Source of the DNA: Leucoraja erinacea
Lineage: Eukaryota
Reading direction: 5' to 3'
Length of the DNA: 64,000 bases
Assembly: GCF_028641065.1 (NCBI RefSeq)
Contig: NC_073399.1
Location: 19,654,001-19,718,000 of the forward strand
The position numbers were made by a program, and so were the translations under genes. Below are positions 12,329-62,168 of the stretch, in pieces; the first letter of the stretch is position 1, and every line of letters starts with the position of its first letter. Under the pieces are notes generated by a model that searched no databases, was not told the origin of the DNA, and saw only the letters and a program-made list of their open reading frames with translations.

Positions 12329-13041
12329 CTGCAAGAGAAATAGTATTGGATTACGTAAATCTGTTTATCAGTCACCAAAGGGTTGAAACGCAGCTTCACA
12401 GATAAGCAACAGGGCTGGTACACAGCATCATAACGTGGCCTTGTGCCCAACTTCAGCCTCCCGTGGAGGTGATTTATTTGGGCTTTTTGGTCCAGTCCAC
12501 CTTAGCACAGATGCTGACGGACCCACTGTTAAAGGAGCGGGTGATACAATACAGACAACGGGCGGTTGAGGCAGTTCATGTCAAATCTACCATTGGTCTT
12601 CACGTCACGAGGATAGTGAGGGAAATCGTCAGACAAGGTTCCAGTATTGGATGGTTACACTTGTCAGCTGTGAATTGGACTGGAGACTTGGGCTGTTACG
12701 ATAAAGCATCTTTGGCTAAGGAACTTGATCCACGTAACATCTGAAAACCCATACTCCAATTGTATTGGAAAGAGGTGGTATCAAGGCCAGTGTGAGATCC
12801 ACCATGCGTGGGGAAGGAGGTACTCGAAGAGGCAGACTGATGGGTGGATTGTTTTCTCCTTTCACTGTTCACATTTGATCATAGAGACTCAAGATGCTCC
12901 TGCTCTTGAGGTGCTTGCAGATTTACCTGGTTTCCAAAGAATGCAGGGGGTTGGCCATTGTAATTGCACAGTAGGCCACCAGCGTAACGCACACATAAAA
13001 CGTGAACAATGTCAAAGAATTAATTTGAATACGCTCGATAC

Positions 13042-13165
13042 CTTGTTTCTTTAACATTTGATAAGCCTCTTTGACTTTGGTTTCCTCTGGGAGGGCGACT
13101 GTCCAGCTGAAGAGCAATTCAATGACTTTAGTCTTGACTTTTTCAGATACTCTGTCTCCCAAATA
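13042..13165 (-). CDS. GGA3: GGA3 exon 5 (YLGDRVSEKVKTKVIELLFSWTVALPEETKVKEAYQMLKKQ)
   Basis: 124 nt, acceptor TAG, donor GTATCG. Confidence 0.96.
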
Positions 13166-14281: not shown

Positions 14282-14380
14282 CTTCGGAGATACCACTTTG
14301 ATTAGTTCATTCAGGAATCGGAATTTCCCAACTTCATTGTGAAATCTCTGTCCACAGTTCTTCATAGAAGCTTCCAAGAC
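14282..14380 (-). CDS. GGA3: GGA3 exon 4 (VLEASMKNCGQRFHNEVGKFRFLNELIKVVSPK), VHS
   Basis: 99 nt, phase 0/0, acceptor TAG, donor GTGGGT. Confidence 0.96.
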
Positions 14381-15643: not shown

Positions 15644-15719
15644 GGTGAGGGCTTGTACTGCCTCCCACTCCTGTGGAGACTGGATTTTATGAGCCAGCAG
15701 CCTGACAGCAATCTGTGGC
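15644..15719 (-). CDS. GGA3: GGA3 exon 3 (PQIAVRLLAHKIQSPQEWEAVQALT), VHS
   Basis: 76 nt, acceptor CAG, donor GTGAGT, frame maintained. Confidence 0.96.
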
Positions 15720-16469
15720 CTGAGGAAAGGTTAAAGGGCCACAGTTAGGAAAAAAAAACCTTTTCACTGCTGGAACCACAGCAGGAATTTATCATGAGAC
15801 AAGGAGAATCTATCTGCATGGGGCAGTGTTAAAGATGCCCAGGTAAAAGATGAAAATCCAACCTGCTGCAGACAAGGCAATTGCCCCATCCCAGGGTAAA
15901 CAAGGGGATTCCCCCATAGGACTGACCCACTGATTTTGACCCCATGTACCAGAACAGATAGGGCAACTTGTATCTCCTCCCTTCCCCACTCAGGCACAGA
16001 TGGGGTGATATTCTCTCATTCCATAAATGGATGTAAATCAATTTAATGACCCCTGGTCAAAATTATGGAGGGGCATTGCTTATTCGTAGTTGTTCCTGTT
16101 CTAGACAGGCACGGTCACGTGCCACACATTCTAAAACCTGGGGCATAAGTTAAGGGAAGCACTGACATGTTCATTCTGTATCATTTAGTTCAAGCCACGG
16201 AAAGAGCAACTTCACCAATTTATCACCATTTACAAAATTTGAATAGTTTAGAATTTGCTCTAGGAATTGCCACTGCTCCTCAGTACGAGTGCCAGGATGC
16301 CCGGGACAATTGCACAAATGTAGTAGGAGCCTGGTATCTCACTGCTTTGCCCCTGGATGGTCTCAGAAAACTGGATTCCTTTTTAAGGTGCAGTCTGGAC
16401 AATTTAACAATACCATGTTTCAGTGGTAAATGTGTATGGCAGGTCCAGTTGCCAAGGACTGGGTCAAAT

Positions 16470-18150
16470 TATAGAAGATAGGATAATACAGCGCAGGAAC
16501 GGACCCTTCGGCCCACAATGGCTGGCCCCTTTCATGTTCATGCCAAACATAAATGCGAAGCTAAACTAATCCCCTCTGCCTGCATGTTATTCATATCCCT
16601 CTATTCCCTGCATATCCACATGCCTACAGTATCTAAGAGCCTCTTAAACATCACTATTGTGTCTACTCCCACCATGACCTATGACAGCTTCTTCCAGAAG
16701 AATACTGGTCCCGCACATCTCCTTTAAACTTTCCTCCTCTGATCTTAAAGCTGTCTTCTAGTCCTTGACATTTCCACCCTGGGGAAAAAAGGTTCTGATT
16801 GTCTACCCTATGTCTCTCCTAAATTTGTATACTTCCATCAGGTCTCCCTTCAACCTCCCTTTACAGCTAATGCCCTCTATTCCAGGCTGTATTCTGTTAA
16901 ACATCTTCTGCAACTTCTCCAAAGCCTCTACATCCTTCCTGTAATGGGGTGACCAAAATCACACACAATACTCATTCCCCCGTCCGGTGAAGACAAGCAT
17001 ACTTTTCGCCTTCTTTACCACACTTTCTACAAATGTTGTCACTTTCAAGGAGCCATGGACTTAGACCCCAAGTCTATACTTTCCACTTGCATTCAGCCTT
17101 CCAAAGAGCAACATCTCACACTTGCTCCGATCCATCTGCTATTTCTCTACCCGCATCTATAACGGATCTAAATCCATTATGTCCTTTCACAATCTTCCTC
17201 ACTGTCCACAACTCCAACTTTAGTGTCGCTGCAGACTTCCTAACCAACACATCTAAATTTAACTCTAAATCTTAATCATTTGTGTACATCACAAACACGA
17301 GCATAGAACTATGAAGAACACCACTGGTCAGTCCTGCCCCTTTCCCTCATTATTCTTTGTTTTCTGTGGGTAAGTTAATTCTGATTTCAAACTATCAAGT
17401 CACGGTGGATCCCATGCATCCTAATCTCCTGGATCAGCCTGCCATGAGAGACTTTTCTCAAATGCTGGTATACATCATCTGATGCCCTGCTCTTAAATGT
17501 CATCTCATCTCCTCAAAAAACTCAATCAACTTAAAGCCCTGTCCCACGGTACGAGTTCATTCCAAGGGTTCTCCCGAGTTTGCCCTGTTTCAAACTCGGA
17601 GATTTACGGTAATGGCAACTCGTCGGTACTCGGGGCTCTCGTGGACATTTTTCAACATGTTGAAAATTCTTCACAAGTCTTCCTGTGCTTATCTGCCGTT
17701 AGCGAGTCTTCCCGAGTACCTGCCGTTAGCGCTAAGAGACGTCCCCGAGCTCCGACGTACCCGCTACGTTCATTCTCTGTACTTACCGCGAGTTTGATTT
17801 TTTTTAAAAACTCGGGACAGCTCTTGAAATGAACTCATACGGTGGGACAGGGCTTTTAGTAAAACATGACCTGCCCTGGACGAAGCCGCAATTGTTCATA
17901 ATTATCTCATTCTCTTCCTAATGCAAGTAAAACCTATCCTGAAGAATCCTCTCCAATAGCTTCTCTCCCATTGATGCAAGGCTCATAGTCCTACAATTTC
18001 CTAGATTATTTCTACTTTCCTTTTGAACAAAGGAACAACTACTCTCCAATCCGCCAGGACCCCACCTGTGGCCTGAGAATATACAAAGATGTTTTCAAGC
18101 CCCCCCCCACAATCTCTTTTCTTGACACCCTCAATAGATCCCATTAGGCC
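16470..18150 (-). mobile_element. Degraded CR1 fragment interrupted by a MITE
   Basis: Antisense CR1 3' tail and RT-like sequence. Confidence 0.7.
17534..17855. mobile_element. PIF/Harbinger-type MITE (322 bp)
   Basis: About 48-bp TIRs AAGCCCTGTCCCAC...; TTA duplicated at 17531-17533 and 17856-17858; removal restores the host CR1 sequence. Confidence 0.88.
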
Positions 18151-19170
18151 CTGGAGATATGGGTGGATCAGTTAAAGAACAGAAAACAAAGCAGGATAAA
18201 CAGATTGTTTTCAGTTTGCAGGTAGCAAAACATCATAATGAGCAGAACCGAGCTTCAACTATTTACAATCTACAGTATATTAATGACCGAGATGGAAGGC
18301 AGGTATGGTGTAAACAAAGAGGCTGCAAGTAGCAGAGAAGCCAGAAAAATAGATGTTCAGAAAAAAAGCAAAATTAGCCAGCTTGGTAAAAAGAATGCAA
18401 AGTAAAATGGGAAAAACAGGCTGCAGTGAGTTTGCAGCAGAACACCAACCAGGCAGAGCTTTTGTGAAACCACACATGGGACACACTGTACCATTTTAGT
18501 GTCTGTACACAAAGATGTATAAACTTGCTCTAGAGGTGGTGAGGCACAGATTGCTTGCTTCCTGGGATGAGGGAAGTTAATTTACAAAGAGAGATTGAGT
18601 GAGATGGGCTCATACTAACTGGAGAACAACTTATTCAAGAGAAGAACAAGAGGTAACCTCACTGAAACATCAGAGGGATTGACAAGGTAGTTGCTTTCTC
18701 CAGAATCTGGGGGGCACAGTCATGGCATAGGATCCAAACTCTCTTCTACAAATAGCAGCCATTGTGACATCAATTTGAGAAAGACTGAGGAAAATATATT
18801 TAGTCAGATGGCTGTTTTGCACTCTCTAACTTGAGGGCCATACATTGTTTGTTTCAATGCTAGGATCAACAGCTTTTCTTTGAAATCAGGAAACACAAGG
18901 AACATACAAAAACAGGAACTTGAAGCAGAATTCTTCCATAACCTAATGTAAAGAGAGCAGGCTTGGTGGTGGTGAAGATGATGTGACCTACTCCTGTTGC
19001 ATTTTTTCTAATCCAATGCCAACTAGATAATAATCATTTTCCTTTGTTCTTCTGTTAATTTTTACCAGTCCTAAATATCAGGAGAAAGGCAACTTTTAGC
19101 CCAAATAACGAATAGAATCTTCGGATCAGTATACTGTATATAAGTGCAACATATACATTTATTTACATAC

Positions 19171-19255
19171 CCTTCCAGCTCCTTATTGACCTGGTCACAG
19201 AAGCCAATGATGTACTCCCAATCTTCCTGCCGATTTGCAGGATTAGTGGCTTTAT
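19171..19255 (-). CDS. GGA3: GGA3 exon 2 (NKATNPANRQEDWEYIIGFCDQVNKELEG), VHS
   Basis: 85 nt, acceptor TAG, donor GTATGT, in phase with exon 1. Confidence 0.96.
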
Positions 19256-21019
19256 CTACAGGTGGGTAAAATACACAGTCAGTTACAATACTCTGGACAA
19301 CCTAACCTCACAAGTACTGGACAACTAACAGAGACAAATATTGTTGTCACACATTGTTAAACCCACACTGAAGCTCTTTCCACAGATGCCTCTTCCCTGT
19401 ACCTGGAGAGGACAACAGCTTGGCGAAGCCAAAACCTGTGGGTGTTGGAAACATGAGATTGGAATAGCAGGTGGTCCCCAGTGGATTAGACTGCATGAAG
19501 TAATTGTTGTCATTTAGCCATTTTTTCAGGATGAGGACATGTCTGACATTTATTGCTCAGCCTCGAGAGGGGGCATTGAACCGTTTCTTAAATTGCTGCA
19601 ATTCCTTTGGCAAAACTACTCCCTTAGTGTTAATGGAGGAGATGCTCCAGCATTTAAACCCCGCCAGGAGGAAGGAATTTCCAAGTCACTAGTGGTGTGT
19701 GATTTGGAGAGGGACCCGTAGATGGTGGCGTTACCAACAACATGCTGTCCCTGCCCCTTTCGGGGTAGAGGTTATGGGGTTGAGAGGTATGGAGTACTCC
19801 ATGAGTATTTGCAGTACATTATGTAAATGGCCCACAATAGAGCTGGTGAAGTTAAATATAATTTAAAATTCTGTTTTCAGTAATGGAAGCAACTGTTTTG
19901 TCATAAACCAAGCTTCTCTGAATCCCACAGGGGAAGGATACGCTGCCTCTATCCATAAACCAACCTGCTTCTCTGACATCCCCACAGGGGAAGGAATACG
20001 CTCCCCTCCATTGAGTCTGTCCAAAGCAATCCACTCATCAGCATCGCCAAGGATGCTGACTCCAGACCTGAGTAATACCATCCGGGAGACAGGTTCTCCG
20101 TTGCCGCCCAGCATCGAGTAATCTATAAAGCCATTCTGTTGTAACTCGATGACCTCCATGTTATTAAATTTTTTTTTCAAATCGATGTCGCTAAAGATGA
20201 GCAACTGTACTGTACACTGACAATGACAATTAAAATTGAATCTGAATCTGAAATTGTAACAAATCCTCAATGTTAAAATATTTTTTTTACGAGAATAAAA
20301 CTGAGCAAACTCATTAAGGCATCAGATAAAACAGCAGAAAATTCACCCTGATCAAGTTAAGAGAACACCACCATCTCCAAGTCACACACCACCCTCATTC
20401 CTTCCTCATCGGTAAACGTTAATCCCCAAATTCCCTTACCGACCATATCGCTTTGCCAGTAATAACCTCATTTCGTATCGCAAGCTCTTCCTCACAAACA
20501 TCTCAGGAATGGTGTTAAATTGGAGGGACGAATCAGCCTAAAGCAGTTGGTTTGCAAAACCGTATCAGCAGCCGACATCCTGAACTCCTCCTCACTACTG
20601 CAGGTACTCATTCAATGCCCGTGTACTGCTTCAGATATCCACTTGTCTCCCTACATGTACTGACACCTTCTTCTCCCCATACATTCCCTAATATTCTATT
20701 CTAAATATTCACTTGCCTCCCTGTATACTGTAAAAGCACTCACCTCTCTGTGTTATTACTGCAGGTATCCTCTTATCTTCTCTATATTATCTGTGCAGAT
20801 ATTCCTGTCTTCTCTTTATCAATCGTTAACATTTTCTCAAGCCTCCTTCATTACTTTAAATGAACCTGCTCTATCATTGTAGTAATCTTTTTTTTAAACT
20901 TGTTTATAGGATGTGTATATTTATTAACCTTCCTTAAATTCCTCTTCATATGGTAGTTAAGTAATTGGCAGGTCCAGAGTTGTATATGGAAATCCAGATA
21001 GATTTCAACAGGAAGTCCA

Positions 21020-22129: not shown

Positions 22130-22685
22130 CTCACGATGCAACACCTGCCCCTATACCTCCTTCCTCGACACTGTCCAGGGACCCAGACAGTCCTTTCAGA
22201 TTAGGCATGGGTTCACCTGCACCTCCTCTAACCTCATCTACTGTATCCGTTCAAGATGTGGACGTTGGCAAGACCAAAAGTAGACTTGCCGATCGTTTCG
22301 CGGAACACCTGCTGAACGCCCGCCTGAACCAACCCGATCTCCTGGTTGCCGGACACTTTATTTCTCCTTCCCATTCCTACACAGACCTTTCTGTCCTAGG
22401 TCTCCTCCATTGTCAGAGTGAGATAAAATGCAAATTGGAAAGTCGTATTAGCTTCTCGTTTTCACCCTACAAACAGCTAACAATGGCCTGTTTCCTTTAT
22501 CATTGTCACTTTTTTGCATATCTTTTATTCATTGTTCTTTATCTCTCCATATTATTGGCTGTATTTCTGGTTTCCACTATCCCTAACCAGTGTGAAGAAG
22601 GGTCTCGATCCAAAACGTCACCCATTCCTTCTCTCCAGAGATGCTGCCTGTCCCGCTGAGTTACTCCAGCTTTTTGTGTCTATCT
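22130..22685 (+). mobile_element. Penelope-like 3' end: GIY-YIG endonuclease remnant plus hammerhead-like module
   Basis: FTCTSSNLIYCI...GKTKSRLADRFAEHL...LSVLGLLHCQSE; then GTGAAGAAGGGTCTCGATCCAAAACGTC at 22592-22619. Confidence 0.85.
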
Positions 22686-23647: not shown

Positions 23648-23892
23648 AGGAATGGGTGACGTTTCGTGTTGTGACCCTTCTTCAGACCGGTAAGAGAACT
23701 GGGAAGATGGAGGGGAAGGAGAGAGAGGGAAAGCAAGGGCTACTTGAAGTTAGAGAAGCCAATGTTCATACTGCTGTGGTGTAAGCTACCCAAGCGAAAC
23801 ATGAGGTGCTGTTCTTTCTGAGGCTCTGACCTTTCTGTCCTGGGCTTCCTCCATTGACTATGTGGGAATGGGAGTGGAAGTTAAAGTGTTGG
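23648..23892 (-). mobile_element. Penelope-like 3' fragment with hammerhead-like motif
   Basis: Motif at 23658-23685 on the minus strand plus an endonuclease C-terminal remnant. Confidence 0.75.
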
Positions 23893-27200: not shown

Positions 27201-28373
27201 AGCAATCCATGGCATGATGGCTGTTACAGCAAGCAATTAGTAGTTTCTGTGTGAGTTTCACTCCACATTAGTTCTGAAGTTCTGGTTAGTTAGTTCTGGT
27301 TGCAGCAAAGAGGGTTGCCTTTGTATTTCAATGTTGGATTGTGGCCAACAGGCCTGCGTGGTATTGAACATCAAGTTCTTACCTGAAATTGCGGTTGAGC
27401 ATGTGGAAAGCTGAAGCAGTGCTTGACAGCTTTTGGTCTAAATATCCAGTCCACAAAATGGCTTTCTCAAGAATATTCTGTGAGCCTTTTTTTCAACCTC
27501 CTGACGTTTAGGAAGTTGAGAATGAAAGTTCAACCAATATCTCCAGGATATAGAAGCCTCGTGCATGATTAAGGGGGGAAGATTAAAAATGTAAAAGAGA
27601 AGCGAGCATTCACATTGATCAGGAACATCATGGTAGAACTCAAAGAGGAGAGAGTTGTAGAACAGTTCCCTCTGCTCACCTTGACTCTGCTGACCATCAT
27701 GCCTATCTATACTAACCTCACCTTCCTATTTTAATTCCACCTCCTCTACACCTTGCTCAAGAAGCTTTCCATGTTACTGCGCTCCTGACTACCACCTATT
27801 CCTCGCTGAGGCCTCTTATGACACTATAACTCAGAGAGTGAGGCAGTGTCTGTGGAGGGGAAATAAGTTTTTTTAATTTAATAAAGTCTTGGCCATGCCT
27901 CAGCTCTCCTTTAGCCTGACTTGCCAGATCCAAGTTGTCCAAACAGGTAAAGTACCCGAACTCCAGGAGGGAGATTTGTTGAAGTGGTCCTGGGCCATGA
28001 CTGATCCTTACTGGAACTAAATGTAAAATTAGTTGTGGAGTTTTCATACAACATTTGGCGTCACCGAGTTTGGCAGGCACAGGAGAAGCTAATACACATT
28101 TCTATTGTTTCAGGCTGAACTGGAATCTCAGAGGCAGTGCCCTCAGTGGGAGAGGGCAGTGATGGGACCTGCTTGGAGTTCCTATCCCACAGTACACACA
28201 GCTGCATGAGTTAGGCATGGGATCAGTTCAGCAAAAGGTATTCCAGAGCCTCATATGTTATGGAAAGGGGAGTGACAAGATAGTAACTGCCTTGATCATT
28301 ATTTCCTTGACTTGACACTTGGATTATTCACAAGTGCATGACAAACGCATGGTGGGCTGTTCTGGAAGGTCGG

Positions 28374-30031
28374 GTCAAAGGGGTGGAGGAATTGAGTGAA
28401 ATCCAGTTAGTCGGGAAGTGGTGTTGGGTAAATTGAATGGATTAAAGGCCGATAAATCCCCAGGGCCAGATAGGCTGCATCCCAGAGTACTTAAGGAAGT
28501 AGCTCCAGAAATAGTGGATGCATTAGTAATAATCTTTCAAAACTCTTTAGATTCTGAGTAGTTCCAGAGGATTGGCGGGTAGCAAACGTAACCCCACTTT
28601 TTAAGAAGGGAGGGAGAGAGAAAACGGGGAATTACAGACCAGTTAGCCTAACATCGGTAGTGGGGAAACTGCTAGAGTCAGTTATTAAAGATGGGATAGC
28701 AGCACATTTGGAAAGTGGTGAAATCATTGGACAAAGTCAGCATGGATTTACGAAAGGTAAATCATGTCTGACGAATCTTATAGAATTTTTCGAGGAGGTA
28801 ACTAGTAGCGTGGATAGGGGAGAACCAGTGGATGTGGTGTATCTGGACTTCCAGAAGGCTTTCGACAAGGTCCCACATAAGAGATTAGTATACAAACTTA
28901 AAGCACATGGCATTGGGGGTTCAGTATTGATGTGGATAGAGAACTGGCTGGCAAACAGGAAGCAAAGAGTAGGAGTAAACGGGTCCTTTTCACAATGGCA
29001 GGCAGTGACTAGTGGGGTACCGCAGGGCTCAGTACTGGGACCCCAGCTATTTACAATATATATTAATGATCTGGATGAGGGAATTGAAGGCAATATCTCC
29101 AAGTTTGCGGATGACACTAAGCTGGGGGGCAGTGTTAGGTGTGAGGAGGATGCTAGGAGACTGCAAGGTGACTTGGATAGGCTGGGTGAGTGGGCAAATG
29201 TTTGGCAGATGCAGTTTAATGTGGATAAATGTGAGGTTATCCATTTTGGTGGCAAAAAGGAAAGCAGACTATTACCTAAATGGTGGCCGATTGGGAAAGG
29301 GGGAGATGCAGCGAGACCTGGGTGTCATGGTACACCAGTCATTGAAGGTAGGCATGCAGGTGCAGCAGGCAGTAAAGAAAGCGAATGGCATGTTGGCTTT
29401 CATAGCAAGAGGATTTGAGTATGAGCAGGGAGGTTCTACTGCAGTTGTGTAGGGTCTTGGTGAGACCACACCTGGAGTATTGCGTACAGTTTTGGTCTCC
29501 AAATCTGAGGAAGGACATTATTGCCATAGAGGGAGTGCAGAGACGGTTCACCAGACTGATTCCTGGGATGTCAGGACTGTCTATGAAGAAAGACTGGATA
29601 GACTTGGTTTATACTCTCTCTAGAATTTAGGAGATTGAGAGGGGATCTTATATAGAAACTTACAAAATTCTTAAGGGGTTGGACAGGCTAGATGCAGGAA
29701 GATTGTTCCCGATGTTGGGGAAGTCCAGGACAAGGGGTCACAGCTTAAGGTTAAGGGGGAAATCCTTTAAAACCGAGAGGAGGAGAACTTTTTTCACACA
29801 GAGAGTGGTGAATCTCTGGAACTCTCTGCCACAGAGGGTAGTTGAGGTCAGTTCATTGGCTATATTTAAGAGGGAGTTAGATGTGGCCCTTGTGGCCAAG
29901 GGGATCAGAGGGTATGGAGAGAAGGCAGGTACGGGATACTGAGTTGATGATCAGCCATGATCATATTAAATGGCGGTGCAGGCTCGAAGGGCCGAATGGC
30001 CTACTCCTGCACCTAATTTCTATGTTTCTAT
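28374..30031 (+). mobile_element. 5'-truncated young CR1 (RT to 3' tail) nested in an older CR1
   Basis: Near-identical to 43307-44960; GTCGG on both sides. Confidence 0.93.
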
Positions 30032-33603: not shown

Positions 33604-33846
33604 TGTAAGAAAGAACTGCAGATGCTGGTTTAAATCGAAGGTGGACACAAAATGCTGGAGTAACTCAGCGGGACAGGCAGCATCTCTGGAGAGAAGGAAT
33701 GGGGGACATTTCGGGTCGAGACCCTTCTTCAGACTGATGTCAGGGGAGTGGGCGGGGCAGAGATAGAATGTAGTCGGAGACAGTAAGAATGGTGGGAGAA
33801 CTGGGATGAGGGAGGGGGTAGAGAGAGAAAGCAAGGGCTAGCTGAG
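33604..33846 (-). mobile_element. Penelope-like 3' end with hammerhead-like motif
   Basis: Minus-strand CTGAAGAAGGGTCTCGACCCGAAATGTC at 33705-33732. Confidence 0.8.
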
Positions 33847-34937: not shown

Positions 34938-35398
34938 AAATGCTGGAGTAACTCAGCGGGACAGGCAGCATCTCTGGAGAGAATGAATGGATGAAATTTC
35001 GGGTCGAAACCCTTCTTCCGACTGAGAGTCTGGGGAGAGGGGGACTAGAGATATGGATGGATATGGTGTGAAAATGACAGATCAAAGCAGACGATGTTCA
35101 AGTAAATGTAGAATGGTTTATTGTTAACTGGGGGAGAAGGTGACAACGAGGCATACAATCAGAAAAATTAATCAGGACAGGGAAACTAGTCGGACAACTA
35201 GGGTGGGGGAAGGAGAAAGAGAGAAGGAAAGCAAGGGTTACTTGGAGTTAGAGAAATCAATATTCATACTGCTGGGTTGTAAGCTGCCAAAACGAAATAT
35301 AAGATGCTGTCCCACCGATTTGCATTGGGCCTCACTCTGACAGTGGAGGAGACCAGTAAGTCAGTATGGGAATGGGAGGGAGAGCTAATGTGTTTAGC
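34938..35398 (-). mobile_element. Penelope-like 3' end (endonuclease C-terminus plus module)
   Basis: LLHCQSEAQCK...HLIFRFGSLQPSSMNIDFSN on the minus strand; degenerate motif at 34993-35020. Confidence 0.8.
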
Positions 35399-37049
35399 GT
35401 CTTTACAAAGCTTCTCCGGGTGAAATGCCTTTAGAATATTTTTGGATTTGCTTGTATTTTTGCTGACCATTTCCTCACATTGTCTCCATTTCTTTTACTT
35501 CACGTGGAACCAGAAATCAGCCTCAATTTCAGTTTCATTAAACTGACTGCCTATTGTACTGTCTTTCACGTTGATTATACGTGGAGCCCTATCATTAATT
35601 TCCTTTCCCATGGTTATTCTAACCAGTTGCTAGTCGATGATTCCAATTTCCTAGGTTCCCATCCTCCGATATTTGCTCCACTTGACTTGGCTTGTTTCTA
35701 GAACCAGGCAACACAACCTCCCTTTAATGTACTTATCAAGAAAGTTTAACTGAACCCACTTCAGCAACTCATCTTCCTCTTTGGCCCTTACGTAATTGGT
35801 TCCCCAATCTACATTTGGACACTTGAAGACTCTCAATTTCAATTCTCTACACTTCTTGTACATCTTTGCAATTTTCCTGCAAATGTCTCCTCAATATCCT
35901 TTGCATCACCCTGCAACTCCACACCAGTCCCAGAAGTCTCGGGTGATCTCTGGTCGGCACGGACTCGGTGGGCCGAAGGGCCTGTTTCCTCGCTGTATCG
36001 CTTAACTAAACTAAACTAAACCAAAAGTAATCACAATGTTTATTTTTTCTCTAAATTCAAACAGAGATTCTAGCTTACTCATTCCAAGGCATCCCTCTCC
36101 TCAATTCTAAAATATTCATCTCCATTCTTCCCTATTGTCATTGAACGCCTTATGTCCAGGAATATTGAAAAACCATTCCGAATCCCTTTTCAAGACAGGT
36201 CTCGGCCGTTGCCATGACATCCTAATCCTAACTGGTGAACTGCGCCGCTGCTCACTAATCTCTTTTAATACGCTTCTTGCATTTATTTACAGTCTTAGAG
36301 CCTGTATTCTTAGTCTGGTTCTGTCTAAAATTGTTATTACTTGTTCTGATGTTATTTTTCTCCTAATCCATGCATTTTTACTCCTATCTAATGCAACTTA
36401 TTTTGCTCAATGTGCTCAAATTAGTTTAAATTCCGCCCCCTTCCCTCCCCCGGCTCCTTTCACAAGAATAGTTAATGCATTTTGAACAGTTCCCACTGCA
36501 CCAAGTAAGCGGCAGCACATGCAGGACGATAGTGAAGATAAACTACCCCACTTTTTTGTTTACTTTAATTGATTGAAAAAAAGATTTTAGCTCTGCTTTG
36601 AACTTTGCAAGTTTAAAAAAAATAATTATGCAGTCTAAATAAAACGGGATGCTTGCGTTCCAGTTATTGCATTTTCAGTAATTGTTCCTGAAACTTGTAC
36701 TTGGCACAGCCGCAGTTTGCTCCAAATCAATATTCCGGACAGGTAAATCACGGGTTGCTGGGCAACCGTGACTGGGCTTTGTAAATATTCGGCATTTTAC
36801 AGCTAAACTATTAACATATGGCATTTAAAATATATAAAACTTGACATTTATTAAGCGAAACACAGTTTTAAATGCATCGAACGAATTTATGACGAGAAGC
36901 AGCTTCTTTCGCTTATCAACAAAGTGCTATAAATATTAATCAGGGAAGGGGCCGCCCTCTTGCCATACTAGAGGCTGGTTGGATGATTGTGGGGATTAAC
37001 CTGTGGTCATGTTCCCTCAGCCTACACTGATAGGAGGGCAGAGCTTTCA

Positions 37050-38350
37050 GTCGGGTGTGTCGGAGCCGTGAGCGGGAGCGCGCCGCCACTTTGTATCCTT
37101 TGGATAGTTTGTTGCAGTTTGGTCCCAGATCGCTACAAAGTGTTCGGTCGAGAGAGCGCGGAAAGGCGGGGAGCATCATGACCAAAGACCAGCTCAGGCC
37201 GCGGCTTTGTGTCATCAGCAAGGGCCCCAATGGCTACGGGTTCCATCTGCACGGGGAGAAGGGCAAGACGGGTCAGTTCATCCGCCTGGTGGAAGAGAGC
37301 TCGCCGTCCGAGGGAGCGGGGCTGAAGGCCGGTGACAGGGTGGTGCATGTCAATGGCGACAACGTGGAGCAGGACAGCCACCAGCAAGTGGTGCAGAAGA
37401 TCAAGGCAGTGGCCAACGAGACGCGGCTGCTAGTGGTGGACAAGGAGACGGACGAGCTGCTGAAGAGCATGGGGCTGGAGTGTAAGGAAGAGTATATCCA
37501 CGGCATCCCGGACCAGGAGCAGGGCGCCGAGCAGCTGCCCGAGCCCAAAGACCCAACACCGACAGCCGAGCTCAATCAGGCTGACAGCGTGTCTCAGACT
37601 AGCAGCGATAAGGTACGTGGCGGCCCGGCTCGCGTTGGGAGCCTGATTCGGGCTGGGTAGCTGAGTGTCACAGCCCGCCTCTGCACTCGCTCCGCTTCCC
37701 TCGGACGCTTCGGGTGTGAACCAGGAGCCCAGCCACCCTGCCCGGGGCACCTGTTAAGAAGCGGAGTGGTGGTCACATTCGAGCCCGCGGTTCGAAACAA
37801 GGCGGAAGCGATTCCGAGAGAGCGATACGTTCCTCGGGGAATCGAGACATTTGGGAGTTGTGCGGGGAAGTGGCGCTGAGGTTAGAGACCAGCTCGGCTC
37901 TTATTGTGAAGCCGAGCACAGCAGGAGGGGCCGAGTGGCTCACTGCCAGTGCACTGGACACGGGCTGGGCAGAGTCCCCTGCCACCGGATCGGTTGTTGC
38001 GGCGGGCGGGCGGTCACACGGTGCGGGAGGAGGCTCGATGTGAGCGGGAGGGAGCTGAGCGGATGTCCTGGACGGCGGTGGGGGAGGGAGGCTTCCTCTC
38101 CCGCGGGGATGTTGGGCGGTTTCCTTTTGGGAACAGAAAAATAAAGTCCAGCTTGAGTTTATTTAGCTCTTATAAGATTGGAGGGTTGTTTCAGCAGCAA
38201 TGTCCGTGTCAGGTTTGTTTTGAAGCTCGGAGTGAGGTGGAGTGTCTGGTTTGATCGGAGTTGTCAGTCGTGTCCGGAACAATACGTGACCCGCCGTTCG
38301 GGGACTTCAGTGACCAGTCAGTCACCAGATCTGATTTAAGCGCCGTTCGC
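37050..38350. promoter_or_regulatory. CpG island over the NHERF1 promoter, exon 1 and intron start
   Basis: Visibly dense CpG and high GC against CpG-poor flanks. Confidence 0.75.
37178..37612 (+). CDS. NHERF1: NHERF1 (SLC9A3R1/EBP50) coding exon 1: PDZ1 domain plus linker
   Basis: [39 protein letters not shown]...[10 protein letters not shown] with the GYGF PDZ loop; ATG has A at -3; 435 nt, donor AAG|GTACGT. NHERF1 preferred over NHERF2 because of KGPNGYGF and linkage to GGA3. Confidence 0.88.
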
Positions 38351-38504
38351 GTTTACTGCTGGTCTTTAACATAGGCGTTGAGGTTGTTTTAGAAACAGGC
38401 AGAATAACACCTGGATCAAACCTGGTTCCCAGCAATCAGGATATCGGCTTCGCTGCTGGAAGTTGGATGTTTATTCCAAGTGGCCATTCTTTCTGAATGA
38501 ACCC

Positions 38505-38598
38505 GTCTGAAGAAGGGTTTCGGCCCGAAACGTTGCCTATTTCCTTCGCTCCATAGATGCTGCTGCACCCGCTGAGTTTCTCCAGCTTTTTTGTGTAC
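38505..38598 (+). mobile_element. Short Penelope-like terminal module with hammerhead-like core
   Basis: CTGAAGA-AGGGT-TTCG-GCCC-GAAACGTT at 38507-38534. Confidence 0.75.
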
Positions 38599-39399
38599 CG
38601 GCCATTCTTTCTTCCAGGCCGTTGCGTTGTGAAACGCAGGAGTTTAGGCACATCTCCAAGAAAGGTTTCTTGGTGGCGAAGTGGAAGATTCATTATTTCT
38701 GTGTACGTGTGTGGGGGAGGAATTGTTTCGCGTATGTGTGTGTGAGAGAGAGATAGAAAGAGAAATGTCAGTACTTTTTTTGAATTGGTGTAGATTCGGA
38801 TATTGCTGATGGCATAATTCAGCGGGGCACCCGGATTTTAATTTATTTTGAATTGTCACGTGTACCTAGGAACAGTGAAAAGCTTTTGTTACGTGCTAAC
38901 CAGTCAGCACAGACAATACATGATTACATTCGAGTCATCCAGTGTGCAGATGCACGATAAAGTGAATAAAGTGCAAGATAAAGTCGAGTAAAGTCCGATT
39001 AAAGGACTCCAATGAGGTACATGATAGCATCTTTGTAATGCGCGTTTTCAGCTCAGTTAGTGTTCTACACTTGAATGGACCGAGTGCCCTCTGTGTTCTG
39101 TTGAATTCTCATCCTAGTCATGGTTGCAGCTGCGTTTTAGTACCTCGTCCCTTTGTTACATGCAGGTTATCCAGCAGCTGTGTCATTATTGAATGGATGA
39201 GTATTGGATCATCACTGCCCTGATGTTTGTCTGGGTGCTGCTTGTACCTGCACAATGAGTCTGAAAGCCATCCCTTTGGTGTTTGTGTAAGGATGAGTGC
39301 ACTTTGAAGTGAAGGGTCCATTTACACAGCTCGAAGTTTGGCACCCCTTGCAATAATCCGCAGCGCATTGGTAGGCTGTGATTTGTAATACAATTTAAA

Positions 39400-40645: not shown

Positions 40646-41107
40646 AGAGACACGAGGAACTACAGATATTGGAATCTTGAGCAAAAACACAAAGTGTTTT
40701 AGGAACTCGGAAGGTCAGGCAGCATCTGTGGAGGAAATGGACAAACCATGTTTCTGGTCGAGACTCATCTTCAGACTGCTTGTAGTAAGAGGGGAGAAAG
40801 CTGGAAAAAAGATGTAGGTGTGGGACAAAGCCTGGCAAGTGATAGGCGGATACAGGGGGGGGGGGGGGGTTATTGATTGGCAGGTGGGTTGAGTAAACAT
40901 TTGACCACCCATCTGTCGATTAAAACATTCCTAAATCTTTATCTACCAATAACCTGCCGTACTTTGTCCCACTTCCATCTTGCTTTTCCAACACCCTCCC
41001 CCAAGTTGCTATGAAGAAGGGTCCAGACCTGAAACATCCTTTGTCCATTTCCTCTCCAGATGTTGCCTGACCTGCTGAGTTCCTCCAGCACATTGTGTTT
41101 TGCTTAC
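40646..41107. mobile_element. Older, longer fold-back Penelope-like insertion
   Basis: Inverted copies of the same 3' module at both ends; possible degenerate TSD AATGGATGAAG / AATAGATCAAG. Confidence 0.65.
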
Positions 41108-41862: not shown

Positions 41863-44800
41863 GTGTCGAATGGGATAGTGGAGGATGGAGTTAAAGGGAA
41901 AGGGTTTCTTAAATGTGTGAGCGTAGGGACAGAGGGGTGTAAAATGAGGATAGAAGCAATAGGTAGCAAGGTGAAAAGTAAAAGTGGCAGGCAGACAAAA
42001 CCAGGGCAAAAATCAAAAAGGGCCACTTTTCAACATAATTGTATAAGGGGTAAGAGTGTTGTAAAAACAAGCCTGAAGGCTTTGTGTCTCAATGCAAGGA
42101 GCATTCGTAATAAGATGGATGAGTTGAATGTGCAGATAGCTATTAATGACTATGATATAGTTGGGATCACGGAGACATGGCTCCAGGGTGGCCAAGGCTG
42201 GGAGCTGAACATCCAGGGATATTCAATATTCAGGAGGGATAGAGAGAAAGGAAAAGGAGGTGGGGTAGCGTTGCTGATTAGAGAGGAGATTAACGCAATG
42301 GAAAGGAAGGACATTAGTTTGGAGGATGTGGAATCGGTATGGGTAGAACTGCGAAACACTAAGGGGCAGAAAACGCTGGTGGGTGTTGTGTACAGGCCAC
42401 CTAACAGTAGTAGCGAAGTTGGAGATGGTATCAAACAGGAAATTAGAAATGCGTGCGACAAAGGCAAAACAGTTATAATGGGTGACTTCAATCTACATAT
42501 AGATTGGGTGAATCAAATTGGCAGGGGTGCTGAGGAAAAGGATTTCTTGGAATGTATGCGGGATAGTTGTCTAAATCAACATGTAGAGGAACCAACGAGA
42601 GAGCAGGCTATTTTAGACTGGGTAATGAGTAATGAGGAAGGGTTAGTTAGCAGTCTTGTTGTACATGCCCCCTTGGGCAAGAGTGACCATAATATGGTTG
42701 AATTCTTCATTAGGATGGAGAGTGACATTGTTAATTCAGAAACAATGGTTCTGAACTTAAAGAAAGGTAACTTTGAGGGTATGAGACGTGAATTGGCCAA
42801 GATTGACTGGCAATTAATTCTAAAAGGGTTGACGGTGGATATGCAATGGAAAACATTTAAAGACTGCATGGATGAACTACAAAAATTGTTCAACCCAGTT
42901 TGGCAAAAGAATATATCAGGGAAGGTAGTACATCCGTGGATAACAAGGGAAATCAGGGATAGTATCAAAGCGAAGGATGATGCGTACAAATTAGCCAGAA
43001 AAAGCAGCATACCGGAGGACTGGAAGAAATTCAGAGACCAGTAGAGGAGGACAAAGGGCTTAATTAGGAAAGGAAAAATACATTATGAAAGAAAACTGGC
43101 AGGGAACATAAAAACTGACTGCAAAAGTTTTTATAGATATGTGAAAAGAAAGAGATTAGTTAAAACAAATGTAGGTCCCTTGCAGTCAGAAACAGGGTGA
43201 GTTGATCATGGGGAACAAGGATATGGCGGACCAATTGAATAACTACTTTGGTTCCGTCTTCACTAAGAAAGACATAAATAATCTGCCGGAAATAGCAGGG
43301 GACCACGGGTCAAAGGAGTTGGAGGAATTGAGTGAAATCCAGGTTAGTCGGGAAGTGGTGTTGGGTAAATTGAATGGATTAAATGCCGATAAATCCCCAG
43401 GGCCAGATAGGCTGCATCCCAGAGTACTTAAGGAAGTAGCTCCAGAAATAGTGGATGCATAGTAATAATCTTTCAAAACTCTTTAGATTCTGGAGTAGTT
43501 CTTGAGGATTGGCGGGTAGCAAACGTAACCCCACTTTTTAAGAAGGGAGGGAGAGAGAAAATGGGGAATTACAGACCAGTTAGTCTAACATCGGCAGTGG
43601 GGAAACTGCTAGAGTCAGTTATTAAAGATGGGATAGCAGCACATTTGGAAAGTGGTGAAATCATTGGACAAAGTCAGCATGGATTTACGAAAGGTAAATC
43701 ATGTCTGACGAATCTTATAGAATTTTTCGAGGATGTAACTAGTAGCGTGGATAGGGGAGAACCAGTGGATGTGGTGTATCTAGACTTCCAGAAGGCTTTC
43801 GACAAGGTCCCACATAAGAGATTAGTATACAAACTTAAAGCACATGGCATTGGGGGTTCAGTATTGATGTGGATAGATAACTGGTTGGCAAACAGGAAGC
43901 AAAGAGTAGGTGTAAACGGGTCCTTTTCACAATGGCAGGCAGTGACTAGTGGGGTACCGCAAGGCTCAGTGCTGGGACCCCAGCTATTTACAATATATAT
44001 TAATGATTTGGATGAGGGAATTGAAGGCAATATCTCCAAGTTTGCGGATGACACTAAGCTGGGGGGCAGTGTTAGCTATGAGGAGGATGCTAGGAGACTG
44101 CAAGGTGACTTGGACAGGCTGGGTGAGTGGGCAAATGTTTGGCAGATGCAGTATAATGTGGATACATGTGAGGTTATCCATTTTGGTGGCAAAAACAGGA
44201 AAGCAGGCTATTATCTAAATGGTGGCCGACTAGGAAAAGGGGAGATGCAGCGAGGCCTGGGTGTCATGGTACACCAGTCATTGAAAGTAGGCATGCAGGT
44301 GCAGCAGGCAGTGAAGAAAGCAAATGGTATGTTAGCTTTCATAGCAAAAGGATTTGAGTATAGGAGCAGGGAGGTTCTACTGCAGTTGTACAGGGTCTTG
44401 GTGAGACCACACCTGGAGTATTGCGTACAGTTTTGGTCTCCAAATCTGAGGAAGGACATTATTGCCATAGAGGGAGTGCAGAGAAGGTTCACCAGACTGA
44501 TTCCTGGGATGTCAGGACTGTCTTATGAAGAAATACTGGATAGACTTGGTTTATACTCTCTAGAATTTAGGAGATTGAGGGGGGATCTTATAGAAACTTA
44601 CAAAATTCTTAAGGGGTTGGACAGGCTAGATGCAGGAAGATTGCTCCCGATGTTGGGAAGTCCTGGACAAGGGGTCACAGCTTGAGGATAAGGGGGAAAT
44701 CCTTTAAAACCGAGATGAGAAGAACATTTTTCACTGGTGAATCTCTGGAACTCTCTGCCACAGAGGGTAGTCGAGGCCAGTTCATTGGCTATATTTAAGA

Positions 44801-44960
44801 GGGAGTTAGATGTGGCCCTTGTGGCTAAGAGGATCAGAGGGTATGGAGAGAAGGCAGGTACGGGATACTGAGTTGGATGATCAGCCATTATCATATTGAA
44901 TGGCAGTGCAGGCTCGAAGGGCCGAATGGCCTACTCCTGCACCTAATTTCTATGTTTCTA
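41863..44960 (+). mobile_element. Young CR1 LINE, near-complete ORF2 (APE endonuclease plus RT), lightly disrupted
   Basis: NARS, GITETW, VYRPP, MGDFN, SDH endonuclease motifs; YRPVSLTS, QHGF, YLDFQKAFDKV, GVPQGSVLGP, KFADD RT motifs; (TTTCTATG)n tail; stops at 43042 and 43460, frameshift near 43195. Confidence 0.95.
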
Positions 44961-45292
44961 TTAGTGGGCCTCTGTGGGCCCATCGAGTCTGCACTGACCT
45001 TCAACAGACCCATTTACAATAATTCTACATTAATCCCATTTTATTCTCCTTGCGATCCTATATACTCTCCTAGATTTTACCACAGATGGGGCAATTTATC
45101 ATGGCCAACTAATGTACCATCCCACACGTCATAGGTATGTTGAGGAAACTGGAACACCCGGGGAAGACCAGATGGTCACAGATAGAAAGTACAAACCCCT
45201 CACAGAGTGCACCTGTAGTTGGAATTGAACCCAATTCCCCAGTGCTGAACCCAGTGCTGCGAGGCAGCTGCTCCATTAGCTATACCACACTG
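44961..45292 (-). mobile_element. V-SINE (HE1-like); its tail appears split by the 41863 CR1
   Basis: Homologous to the other copies; tail remnant CATAGAGAGATGCAGCAC at about 41839-41856. Confidence 0.7.
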
Positions 45293-48149: not shown

Positions 48150-49020
48150 GCTCTCCTCCATCTAGAGAGAGAAGGATAGCGTTCTCTTGCTTCACTCGCC
48201 TTTCACTCCACCAATCTTCACATCCGAAACATCCCCTGACATTTCTGCCATATTTGGCGTCATCCCACCACCAGTCGCACCTTCTCGTCCCCATTCCTTT
48301 CCACTTTTAACAGGGACCATTCCCTCTCTAACTCCTTGGTTCGCTTATTCCTCGGCTCCAAACCCCTCTCCCTGGCACTTTTGTAACCCCTGTCCCTATT
48401 CCTCTCCTGCCATTCCCGGTGAGAGGTTCACTATTCAAACCTTGTTTATTACATTCGGTGCTCCCATGTGGCTGCCTCTGCATCAACAAGACTAGGCCAC
48501 AGTTTCGCTGAACATTCATTAAGGCTTGCTGAAGCTCCCAGTAGCCTGCCATTTTAACTGCCCTCCTCATTCCCTATACTGACCTTTCTGCCTTTGGAGT
48601 CCTCCTCTGTCAGAGTGAGGCCACATGCAAACCAGAGGGACGGCAATTTGTATTCCATTAGGTTGCATCCTTTCTCCATTTACCTTTTATTGCCCTCTTT
48701 CCCTCACCTTAGTCCCCTTCCACCCAGACACTTCCCTCCGGCTATAGATCTCATTATCCTCTTCTTTCTTTTATCTGGCACCCTTTTGTCTCCGTTTCAC
48801 CTCTGGCCTTCGTCATGATCTCCACCCAGTAATCCCCCTCATCTGTATCCACCTGTCATTTGCTGGGCTATGCTCCACCCCTGCTTCTCTTTTCTAGCTT
48901 TCTCCCCACTAGTCCATAAGTCTGAAGAAAGGTCACTAAATGGATGATATGTCATCTGTCCATTCCCTCCGCAGATGCTGCCTGATCTTCTTGAGTTCTT
49001 CCATCACATTGATTTTTGCA
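48150..49020 (+). mobile_element. Degraded Penelope-like 3' region
   Basis: Similar to the 22130-22685 copy; degenerate CTGAAGAAAGGTC at 48922. Confidence 0.65.
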
Positions 49021-50392: not shown

Positions 50393-50878
50393 TTAGTTAT
50401 AGCGAGGAAATAAATCTTTCGGCGCACTGAGTCTGCGCCGACCAGCAATCACCCTGCACACTAAATCTATCCTACACACCAGGGACGATTTACAGAAGTC
50501 AATTAATCAATTAACAATTGAGGCTAGTTCATTGGCTATATTTAAGAGGGAGTTAGATGTGGCCCTTGTGGCTAAAGGGATCAGGGGGTATGGAGAGAAG
50601 GCAGGGATGGGATACTGAGTTGGATGATCAGCCATGGTCATATCAAATGGTGGTGCAGGCTCGAAGGGCCGAATGGCCTACTCCTGCACCTATTTTCTAT
50701 GTTTCTAACCTGCAAACCTGCATGTCTTTGGAATGTGGGAGAAAACTGGAGCACCCGGAGAAAACGCATGCAGTCACAGGGAGAACGTACAAACTCCTTG
50801 CAAACAGCAAGTCGGGATCGAACCTGGGTCCCTGGTGCTGTAAGGCAGCAACTCAATTGCTGCACCACTGTGCCGCCC
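50393..50878 (-). mobile_element. V-SINE (HE1-like) interrupted by a CR1 tip
   Basis: Head GGGCGGCACAGTGGTGCAGC...GGTTCGATCCCG on the minus strand; V-domain. Confidence 0.85.
50520..50706 (+). mobile_element. Young CR1 3' tip inserted into a V-SINE
   Basis: Matches 44773-44960; SINE sequence on both sides. Confidence 0.85.
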
Positions 50879-51392
50879 TAACCTAGATTGCTCTCCCCTG
50901 TTTTGTCCCTTTGATCTTTGCAGATGGTATGATGTGGATGAGATTATGTTTGATCAGGATGATGTGTTTTGAAAAGTCTAAGGCTGCTTGCATTCAATAG
51001 GTTAGCCTGACAAAATGTTGCACCTTTTAAATTTTAGTACTAATGCTGCTGATTTTTAAATCAACAAAGGTTTTAAATCTGCAACTTGGATTGATTACCC
51101 TGTCATGCTGATATTTTGTAGCATGGACTCTGAAAGAGACTATATGTTAGATGAGAACTTTGGTTCACACACTTGTGTTGAGCTAGTGGATAGGTGACTG
51201 ATCATCTATTGCTCTGCTCAAGCCTGTGAGTCTGGCTCCTTACCCATCAGGGACAAGGCTACAGGTGCTATTCTTAGTTGTTAATCTCCAGTTTATGTAT
51301 TCAAGCACTGGTGGCAGGGTTTAACCTGGGACCTCCCAGATCTGTGGCCTTGGACCTTGCATTTACTGAGTGAGCCAAGAGGGTGAGAATGT

Positions 51393-51750
51393 CGACACAA
51401 AATACTGGAGTAACTTAGCGGGTGAGGCAGCATCTCTGGAGAGAAGGAATGGGCGACGTTTCGGGTCGAGACCCTTCTTCAGACTGATGTCGGGAGGGGG
51501 CGGGACAAATATAGAATGTAGTCGGAGACAGTAAGACTAGTGTGAGAACTGGGAAGGGGATGGAGAGAGAAAGCAAGGGCTATCTGAAGTTGGAGAAGTC
51601 AATGTTCATGCCGCAGGGGTGTAATCTACCCAAGTGAAATTTGAGATGCTGTTCCTCCAATTTGCGCAGGGCCTCACTCTGAAAATGGAGGAGGCCCAGG
51701 ACAGAAAGGTTAGATTGGGACTGGGAGCAGAAGTGCTGAGCCACCGGGAG
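51393..51750 (-). mobile_element. Penelope-like 3' end with the best-preserved hammerhead-like motif
   Basis: Minus-strand CTGAAGAAGGGTCTCGACCCGAAACGTC at 51455-51482, downstream of an endonuclease C-terminal remnant. Confidence 0.85.
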
Positions 51751-52413
51751 AGGAGGAGAATGCTCTCTTCATTAAACAATGCCTTGTAAACCTGATGGGT
51801 TTTTTCCATATGAACTAGGTGTCTTATGTTCTAAGTGATTATTATATGAAACATTCCAATGTCTTTGGACATGACTCGTGCAACTTGATTTTTCTTGTAC
51901 TCACTAAACTGCAGCTCCTCTTGAACTGCTGCATTTGTCCTAGTCTGCAGAAAGTTTAGGACACAGGTTTAGGATATGGGCATTCATGGACATTTTCAAT
52001 TCCTCTCCCTATGTGAAGATCTCCTCTGGACCTGCTTCCCTCTGAAATCCTGTTACTCTTCTTGTTATGGCCAGATATTCACCTTTTTCATTCTATCTCG
52101 TGGATTGGAAGCTCTTGTATTCCCTTTCTAAACTCAGTCTCACTCCACCTTTGAGCGTTTCTTGCAAATGGGACCTTTGAATCAAGCTTTGTCTGCCAGT
52201 GTTCTTGGCCCATATAATGACTGGAAGAGGGGACAGAGTTCAAGGTGTCTATGTTTGCTGATGACAGGAAAACTGGTGGAAGAGCAGGTTGTGATGAAGA
52301 CATTGTGATTCTTCTGCGACAGGGTATTGATTGAGTGCGTGGGCAAACACGAGGCAAATGTAGTTTAACCTGGGAAAATGTGAGGTCGTTCACTTCAGTA
52401 AGTGGAGATCGAA

Positions 52414-53056
52414 TAGCAAAAGGATTTGTAGCAAAAGGATTTGAGTATAGGAGCAGGGAGGTTCTACTGCAGTTGTACAGGGTCTTGGTGAGACCACACC
52501 TGGAGTATTGCGTACAGTTTTGGTCTCCAAATCTGAGGAAGGACATTATTGCCATAGAGGGAGTGCAGAGAAGGTTCACCAGACTGATTCCTGGGATGTC
52601 AGGACTGTCTTATGAAGAAAGACTGGATGGACTTGGTTTATACTCTCTAGAATTTAAGAGATTGAGAGGGGATCTTATAGAAACTTACAAAATTCTTAAG
52701 GGGTTGGACAGGCTAGATGCAGGAAGATTGCTCCCGATGTTGGGGAAGTCCAGGACAAGGGGTCACAGCTTAAGTATAAGGGGGAAATCCTTTAAAACCG
52801 AGATGAGAAGAACTTTTTTCACACAGAGTGGTGAATCTCTGGAACTCTCTGCCACAGAGGGTAGTCGAGGCCAGTTCATTGGCTATATTTAAGAGGGAGT
52901 TAGATGTGGCCCTTGTGGCTAAGGGGATCAGAGGGCATGGAGAGAAGGCAGGTACGGGATACTGAGTTGGATGATCAGCCATGATCATATTGAATGGCGG
53001 TGCAGGCTCGAAGGGCCGAATGGCCTACTCCTGCACCTAATTTCTATGTTTCTATG
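52414..53056 (+). mobile_element. 5'-truncated young CR1 nested in an older CR1 (about 52200-53760)
   Basis: Near-identical to 44342-44960; TTTCTATG tail. Confidence 0.92.
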
Positions 53057-61730: not shown

Positions 61731-62168
61731 AAGACTGGATAGACTCGGCTTGTACTCGCTAGAATTTAGAAGATTGAGGGGAGATCTTATAGAAACTTAC
61801 AAAATTCTTAGGGGGTTGGACAGGCTAGATGCAGGAAGATTGTTCCCGATGTTGGGGAAGTCCAGAACAAGGGGTCACAGTTTAAGGATAAGGGGGAAAT
61901 CTTTTAGGACCGAGATGAGGAAATCATTTTTCACACAGAGAGTGGTGAATCTGTGGAATTCTCTGCCACAGAAGGTAGTTGAGGCCAGTTCATTGGCTAT
62001 ATTTAAGAGGGAGTTAGATGTGGCCCTTGTGGCTAAAGGGATCAAGGGGTATGGAGAGAAGGCAGGGGTGGGATACCGAGTTGGATGATCAGCCATGATC
62101 ATATTGAATGGCCGTGCAGGCTCGAAGGGCTGAATGGCCTACTCCTGCACCTATTTTCTATGTTTCTA
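61731..62168 (+). mobile_element. Young CR1 3' fragment
   Basis: LYSLEFRRLRGDLIETYK...FFTQRVVNLWNSLP; TTTCTATG tail. Confidence 0.9.

Follow-up and report, generated by a model that had tools for sequence, protein, structure and literature searches.

An abundant Penelope-like element of Leucoraja erinacea with a minimal hammerhead in its end repeat and a likely RNA start beside it

A hammerhead-like motif recurs about twelve times in a 64,000-nt stretch of the Leucoraja erinacea genome (RefSeq GCF_028641065.1, contig NC_073399.1, positions 19,654,001 to 19,718,000), which we call the window. One copy, at 51455-51482 on the minus strand, raises two questions: to what kind of sequence does the motif belong, and does its abundance reflect a working ribozyme or some other property of the RNA that carries it? 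The motif is a minimal hammerhead carried by a Penelope-like element (PLE) in its end repeat (pLTR). On balance we favor the reading that this element is likely of the Neptune clade, and that reverse transcription of uncut RNA, primed about 63 or 98 nt past the GUC triplet, likely produced the short copies as cDNAs that extend to a likely RNA start three letters before the hammerhead core.

The 28-mer described in the sequence-only reading is present letter for letter. On the minus strand it runs CUGAAGA, an extra A, a 4-bp stem II with a CUCG loop, GAAA, the palindromic ACGU and GUC, and it matches our structure descriptor; cleavage is predicted after position 51455, i.e., after GUC. The genome (2.19 Gb) holds 15,042 exact copies of the 28-mer and 0 of the reversed pattern. 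Six window matches within 3 mismatches compare with 0.00 in 100 shuffles, and a scan of the 64-kb window with Rfam covariance models gave 0 hammerhead matches at E<=1. At the 5’ edge of the motif, TCAGTCT (51481-51487, minus strand) matches the initiator consensus YYANWYY at 7/7 positions, with its A at 51485. This heptamer lies in the zone where the 5’ ends of the family pile up, its GU supplies the 2-nt 5’ strand of stem I, and we infer that it acts as a start site.

The surroundings of this copy, all on the minus strand, are those of a 5’-truncated PLE. The C-terminal 55 aa and stop codon of a GIY-YIG endonuclease occupy 51580-51747; the frame ending at 51580 has 61% identity over 57 aa (E 1e-19) to P0002, a named ray protein, and these 55 aa alone gave no match in a Pfam scan. 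A pyrimidine-rich 3’ UTR (51488-51579), 88% identical to that of the copy at 33.7 kb, leads from the stop to TCAGT. As had been noticed, the motif stands just downstream of the endonuclease stop, which occupies 51582-51580, with the core 97 nt further. The remainder of the end repeat (51392-51454) reaches to the first of the family’s two 3’ ends, at about +63, and includes a run of pyrimidines predicted to pair with the core in an off-fold. A 7-nt direct repeat (51756-51762, with its second copy at 51385-51391) is likely a target-site duplication.

Identification of the motif as a PLE minimal hammerhead rests on class marks that agree with those of PMC4209133 and on its position after a GIY-YIG endonuclease, which it directly follows in 28 of 30 long copies. 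The protein P0008 scores above the Pfam cut-off for RVT_1 and just below it for GIY-YIG, and genome copies match it in pieces over aa 25-887. Nine homologues were found, and all five that are named come from sharks and rays. A CX4CxxC linker precedes the endonuclease in 4 of 5 aligned proteins (the last C is changed in L008); a CX2-5CxxC linker is described as Neptune type in the available text of PMC8557442, and judged by these sequences the element is likely a Neptune. Locus L196 is a partial tandem in which stop, UTR, motif, tail and the next ORF follow one another, with the ATG of the next unit ~135 nt after GUC. The 3’ ends of the copies fall in two peaks ~35 nt apart. An intron at the ORF start was also considered and dropped: no such joint was seen among the 15 shown of 151, and L047 is in frame from its ATG.

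Several further features of the element were recorded along the way. L196 also has an upstream ATG, 22 nt past GUC. Its 41-aa frame (7174-7291, minus strand) runs over the main ATG but is cut short in another subfamily. Between the N-terminal domain and the RT lie short internal repeats whose number varies (L042:5950-6070, L190:1140-1590). From +20 to +100 after GUC (e.g., 33620-33686, minus strand) the end repeat holds a small hairpin, whose stem is kept and whose 3-nt loop varies by subfamily, and an 8-nt stretch that can pair with the tail; this region may form the structure to which the RT binds.

The other copies in the window display the forms in which the element occurs. Eleven of the twelve places that had been listed were recovered by fuzzy search at their coordinates; the twelfth, 48922 on the plus strand, was recovered by eye and by profile. 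The profile added partial copies at 4862-4896 (minus), 4901-4982 (plus) and 9893-9985 (plus), and a weak match at 27827-27861 (minus). Only 3 of the 12 pass the minimal-hammerhead descriptor, and ACGU and the 2-bp stem I are also kept in only two, those at 51455 and 38507. The latter is a solo stub of the youngest subfamily (38505-38599, plus; UUCG loop, GUU triplet), a descriptor match bracketed by 13-nt direct repeats at 38482-38494 and 38600-38612. A GUU cleavage triplet with a UUCG loop is frequent in this subfamily genome-wide, as at 38507-38534. Copies 720-747 (minus) and 749-779 (plus) form a head-to-head fold-back pair (647-854) joined at the quasi-palindrome TCAG-T-CTGA; the copy at 9855-9879 (minus) and a partial plus arm from 9893 form another (9778-9985); and a third, at 4862-4982, has lost its core and was absent from the earlier list. 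The copy at 33705-33732 (minus) has the core and stem II, AUGU and no stem I, and extends to the long (tail) 3’ end.

The remaining copies are decayed. Those at 22592-22619 (plus) and 23658-23685 (minus; stem II broken, 3’ part lost) each have a GIY-YIG remnant upstream, at about 22300-22440 for the first; 34993-35020 (minus) belongs to a family with a longer UTR and has its remnant at about 35207-35400; 40747-40774 (minus) and 41011-41038 (plus) belong to an older subfamily; and 48922-48951 (plus) is strongly decayed, with a remnant at about 48480-48660. The window also contains exons of a GGA-type adaptor gene (3-19301, minus), with VHS at 19074-19301, adaptin ear at 3-263 and GAT-like pieces between, and its introns contain the three fold-back pairs. 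A PDZ exon at 37091-37657 (plus), presumably of an NHERF-type gene, lies ~850 nt upstream of the intact 38507 stub on the same strand. A young repeat, whose copies are 90-97% identical and have one end in common, occupies 28371-30031, 43306-44961, 52429-53056, 61731-62168 and 50518-50707.

To what extent does the window represent the genome? A profile search of 133 evenly spaced 10-kb stretches (1.33 Mb) yielded 544 end pieces, and 0 on reversed sequence. The motif is spanned by 274 of these pieces. The core is intact in 94 of the 274, core and stem II in 60, these and ACGU in 43, and all of these with the 2-bp stem I in 34; ACGU has been worn away in many copies by CpG decay. The structure descriptor gave 70 matches, compared with 1-4 in four controls. 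Scaled up, the sample corresponds to ~900,000 end pieces, of which ~450,000 bear the motif and ~56,000 are formally intact; a direct genome-wide pattern count of formally intact motifs gave 54,339. The estimate of roughly one motif per 5 kb thus holds for motif-bearing pieces (274 in 1.33 Mb) and fails for intact motifs, which occur once per 40 kb.

We then used the ends of these copies as a record of where the copied RNA began and where reverse transcription started. Flanks were complete for 458 of the 544 matches; 438 of these had sufficient partners, and the 435 that could be aligned comprise 276 non-inverted and 159 head-to-head copies. Non-inverted copies had no excess of 5’ ends at the predicted cut site (7/228 within 2 nt, 11.8 expected). 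By contrast, 84 of 165 ended between +1 and -6 of the first C of the core, where 13.5 were expected, a clustering that the sequence-only reading had not noticed. The UTR references numbered 96, and copies of families without a reference among them would look truncated; exact counts avoid this problem because all five subfamily majorities share TCAGT. Extending the exact 28-mer upstream stepwise by T, G, A, C and T reduced the genome count from 15,042 to 12,908, 11,083, 8,550, 6,433 and 5,141. The first T is already missing from 14% of exact motifs, and the 5’ ends spread over ~8 nt. Modelled at 5% mutation, the loss is 10-23% per letter and peaks for copies starting at G or A. In a related organism, unrelated flanks set in at the same two edges, the counts being 632 and 628 for RNA reads and 458 and 474 for contigs. 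Fold-back arms, a class defined by a partner within 130 nt, pass -7 in only 5 of 159 cases.

About half of the copies are short. Among 112 core-anchored copies, 57 were solos, 28 inverted and 27 extended, and about half of all copies are stubs of 95-135 bp. Flanking repeats of at least 9 nt were found in 12 of the 57 solos (one of them a tandem) and in 0 controls, and the 3’ ends of these 12 fall at +61 to +68 or +96 to +100, the PLE tail. A direct copy lies within 300 nt in only 4/112; within 700 nt, 90/438 have one, at scattered spacings. Read starts in one polyA RNA run of a relative did not pile up, although a fragmented library would not necessarily reveal a pile. In run X24, ORF reads at L196:6930-7215 were strand-biased up to 7:1 or more (the library direction is not fixed), and reads of the end repeat were ~1:1. 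Splicing at TCAGT, which follows a pyrimidine tract, with a donor-like site ~35 nt past the tail, was rejected as a source of the edge: the spliced joined form has only 94 genome-wide matches, the element’s 5’ region lay upstream in 0 of 12 fetched loci, and the upstream letters of solos fade gradually.

These ends suggest a route by which the element may be copied. TCAGT would be the initiator of an internal Pol II promoter, and RNA would start at its A. The RT would prime at the tail of the 5’ pLTR and run off the RNA start after 95-135 nt, and the run-off cDNA would be inserted as a 95-135-bp stub or fold back on itself, which yields a head-to-head pair. For copies that include UTR and ORF, the source would be the downstream pLTR in read-through RNA, or a jump of the cDNA to that pLTR. 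Two internal RT start sites, an uncut template and a protein-dependent hammerhead are described for an anole element in the available text of PMC11167929, and an internal promoter with Inr and DPE for Drosophila Penelope (PMC2377424, excerpts). Copies run through GUC, and this continuity, together with the lack of an excess of ends at the cut site, argues from copy structure against a cut linear RNA as template. Counted against the uncut-template step is that RNA cut and re-ligated would also yield copies through GUC.

The downstream letters of the window copy are partly compatible with such a promoter. Taking the A as +1 and the core promoter consensuses of PMC4581360 (Table 1), the copy matches Inr at 7/7, Bridge part I at 5/5 (+18 to +22), DPE at 5/6 (+28 to +33) and MTE at 9/12 positions; these downstream matches are partial and were found post hoc. 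The CGANC match is broken in the youngest subfamily, and the old family described below is one letter out of register.

The pile of 5’ ends could also have a mechanical origin with no start at that place, the identity of the PLE and its hammerhead being kept: the RT may stall before the C-rich tract, or the cDNA may snap back or anneal at TCAG-T-CTGA. The pile sits on a quasi-palindrome beside a C-rich tract, so that RT stalling or microhomology could produce it. Head-to-head pairs are very common (159/435) and often joined at the palindrome, and the spread of the ends over several letters fits this explanation as well. However, the same edge occurs in families with different UTRs, non-inverted stubs with target duplications end there too, and the loss of exact matches peaks at G and A, as a start with A at +1 predicts. 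We regard a purely mechanical pile as a real but doubtful alternative to a start at TCAGT.

We compared subfamilies to assess whether the hammerhead itself has been maintained. Across five subfamily majorities, 16 core positions are unchanged but for one CpG-type change, and 14/60 downstream positions differ (p 0.025; p = 0.09 when CpG-type changes are counted). This suggests, from weak conservation, that the core of source elements was under selection. The hammerhead loop varies at 2/4 positions. The sole change in stem II, U-A to U-G, keeps the pairing, and the first stem I pair changes likewise. In the covariation check that had been proposed, the core was kept across subfamily majorities and stem II had no two-sided substitution. 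Pattern scans of metagenome and viral contigs gave 0 matches and so yielded no covariation across distant species. The extra A after CUGANGA, originally flagged as a caveat, is present in 95% of aligned copies and in all subfamily majorities and is a published mark of the PLE minimal hammerhead class; the G10.1-C11.1 pair is likewise present in all majorities. The palindromic stem III reported earlier stands as well: ACGU is found in subfamily majorities, and a partner RNA would be needed.

Stem I has a different history. A search with CUGA fixed returned 43 matches, which we took to be mostly chance flanks; an anchor on the 3’ side only found an old family (36 matches, 30 fetched, L246-L275). 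Its majority has CAGUC before the core and GACUG after GUC, a 5-bp stem I whose pairs 1-5 are formed in 15, 15, 11, 14 and 10 of 30 copies, with backgrounds of 0.19-0.30; the fifth is not significant. The abundant families lack the C and the G of the core-adjacent pair, on both strands, and are left with 2 bp; pairs 3-4 are formed in 0/27. TC precedes the core in 12/30 old copies but in only 1/112 abundant ones (p 1e-8). In abundant copies with a UTR, two further pairs are possible after a 2x2 loop (21 and 25 of 27). Against a conserved core speaks that U4 of the old family is mostly A (18 A, 7 T of 30), i.e., CAGAUGA for CUGAUGA. L255, L261 and L272 fuse a newer 5’ side to an old 3’ side and may be intermediates. 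If RNA starts at the A of TCAGT, just three letters precede the core, which would limit stem I to at most three pairs.

These data bear on whether the hammerhead is a working step of the replication cycle, in which pLTR motifs paired through ACGU and aided by protein cut the RNA, the unit is ligated to a circle, and the RT crosses the re-formed GUC to produce partial tandems. A circle model is proposed in the accessible text of PMC4209133, and cutting assisted by protein was shown for the anole element (PMC11167929, in part). Subfamilies differ in the loop but retain the core, ACGU and stem II; partial tandems exist; and copies with a UTR can form the two further pairs after a 2x2 loop. Yet a circle has no 5’ end at TCAGT, where about half of the copies that reach it end; a linear cut RNA should leave an excess of ends at the cut, where we found none; stem I shrank in those families that amplified most; and core mutants of the anole element insert normally (PMC11167929, same portion). 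We consider it unlikely that cleavage is a working step of the cycle. In the scheme we prefer, with uncut RNA started at TCAGT, the hammerhead would cut only as an ACGU dimer aided by protein, and in the 2-bp families this activity would be weak or absent.

A separate non-autonomous family, SINE- or retrozyme-like and copied from the 95-135-bp stubs themselves, would account for the 57/112 core-anchored copies that are solos, some with target duplications. This is improbable: subfamily letters are common to stubs and ORF-bearing copies, stub 5’ ends vary and mostly lack the TC of the initiator, and the two 3’ ends match the PLE tail of the available portions of PMC11167929 and PMC8557442. The scarcity of direct copies within 300 nt also counts against such a family, and the stubs are therefore not tandem retrozymes.

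We also predicted how the motif folds. In the predicted monomer fold the 5’ strand of the core is paired to the pyrimidines that follow the cut, at -18.5 kcal/mol, an ordinary value (z -0.3). The hammerhead conformation scores -4.2 kcal/mol, with a stem II probability near 0. Lone genomic copies would remain in the off-fold. The predicted fold fits the published absence of activity in monomers and low activity in dimers of minimal PLE hammerheads (PMC4209133, in the portion available) and the cleavage of the anole hammerhead only with protein (PMC11167929, likewise). Most genomic copies are probably not working ribozymes, because they derive from RNA that was uncut at the predicted site and that likely began three letters upstream of the hammerhead. 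The large load of working ribozymes envisaged in the sequence-only reading is not supported: only 34/274 sampled motifs are intact, the core is hidden in the predicted fold, stem I has 2 bp, and ends at the cut site are lacking. Widespread cutting of host pre-mRNAs by the intact motifs is highly improbable: their number (54,339) and the copies inside or beside host genes in the window speak for it, but a lone copy has no partner, most neighbors lie on the other strand, the core is buried in the predicted fold, and in published work monomers were inactive and dimers had low activity (PMC4209133, as far as available).

The term strong-stop, used below for cDNAs, comes from retroviral biology. 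Tentatively, and with a good deal less confidence than we place in the reading above, the hammerhead may sit on a core promoter. The stubs, in hundreds of thousands, would be strong-stop cDNAs that map the start, and a jump to the downstream pLTR would build the pseudo-LTR. Loss of the stem I pair would have weakened the ribozyme and put the promoter elements in register, and the families in which this occurred would have overrun the genome. If true, a ribozyme-versus-promoter trade-off is recorded in genomic fossils. The function of PLE hammerheads and the origin of the pseudo-LTR are open questions that copy numbers of this order can serve: the ~900,000 end pieces are a natural map of RT starts and stops, and this map names one nucleotide as the likely start site. 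The natural pair of a 5-bp and a 2-bp stem I suits a direct comparison of cleavage and promoter activity.

How does this element compare with known systems? As a ribozyme find the motif is ordinary, since knowledge of hammerheads in the end repeats of PLEs dates back to 2014. Like those of PMC4209133, in the parts available, it has a type I core, a nucleotide between 9 and 10.1, G10.1-C11.1 and a palindromic 15.2-16.2, and it lies in pLTRs that occur mostly as single copies and close opposite-strand pairs; minimal hammerheads are reported there in fish Xena, Poseidon and Neptune elements. Stem II has 4 bp here compared with 7-8 in Schistosoma and 6 in D. virilis, and stem I 2 bp in the abundant families compared with the usual 4-5 and 2 in D. 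virilis (PMC4209133). The 54,339 intact motifs compare with ~4,000 in coelacanth and ~9,000 in Xenopus, by different searches (same source). We saw no cartilaginous fish among the PLE minimal hammerheads in the available text of PMC4209133, and the matches listed in our literature search included no report of hammerheads in cartilaginous-fish PLEs or of strong-stop PLE copies.

PAc, a Poseidon element of the green anole (Frangieh et al. 2024, PMC11167929, available text), likewise has two internal RT starts that give the tail, with the hammerhead upstream; uncut RNA is its main template, and RNA-seq has no ends at the cut site. It differs in clade and in that its ORF starts inside stem II, not ~135 nt after the cut site, and that text describes no 5’ pile-up or start site. 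Neptune-type EN+ PLEs (Craig et al. 2021, PMC8557442, excerpts) share the RT with C-terminal GIY-YIG, the CX2-5CxxC linker, partial tandems, inverted 5’ copies and a 30-40-bp tail; their richest cases have tens of thousands of copies, compared with the ~900,000 end pieces here. Penelope of Drosophila virilis (Schostak et al. 2008, PMC2377424, in part) has an internal TATA-less pLTR promoter with Inr and DPE. A 75-bp intron starts 46 bp after its start, with the hammerhead at the intron’s 3’ end (PMC4209133, in part); here, in contrast, the first core position would be +4, and we found no splicing.

Two ribozyme-bearing elements of other kinds are also close. Pr77 of trypanosome L1Tc (PMC4748587, in part) is likewise one short 5’ stretch that serves as DPE promoter and self-cleaving ribozyme (PMC6765202, in part); it is an HDV-type ribozyme in a LINE, with both roles tested, whereas ours are predicted from sequence. 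Non-LTR retrozymes (bioRxiv 10.64898/2026.07.22.740005, available portion) carry type I hammerheads related to those of PLE pLTRs and include one chondrichthyan genome; they form tandem arrays with a hammerhead per unit, whereas the copies described here are dispersed stubs and fold-back pairs.
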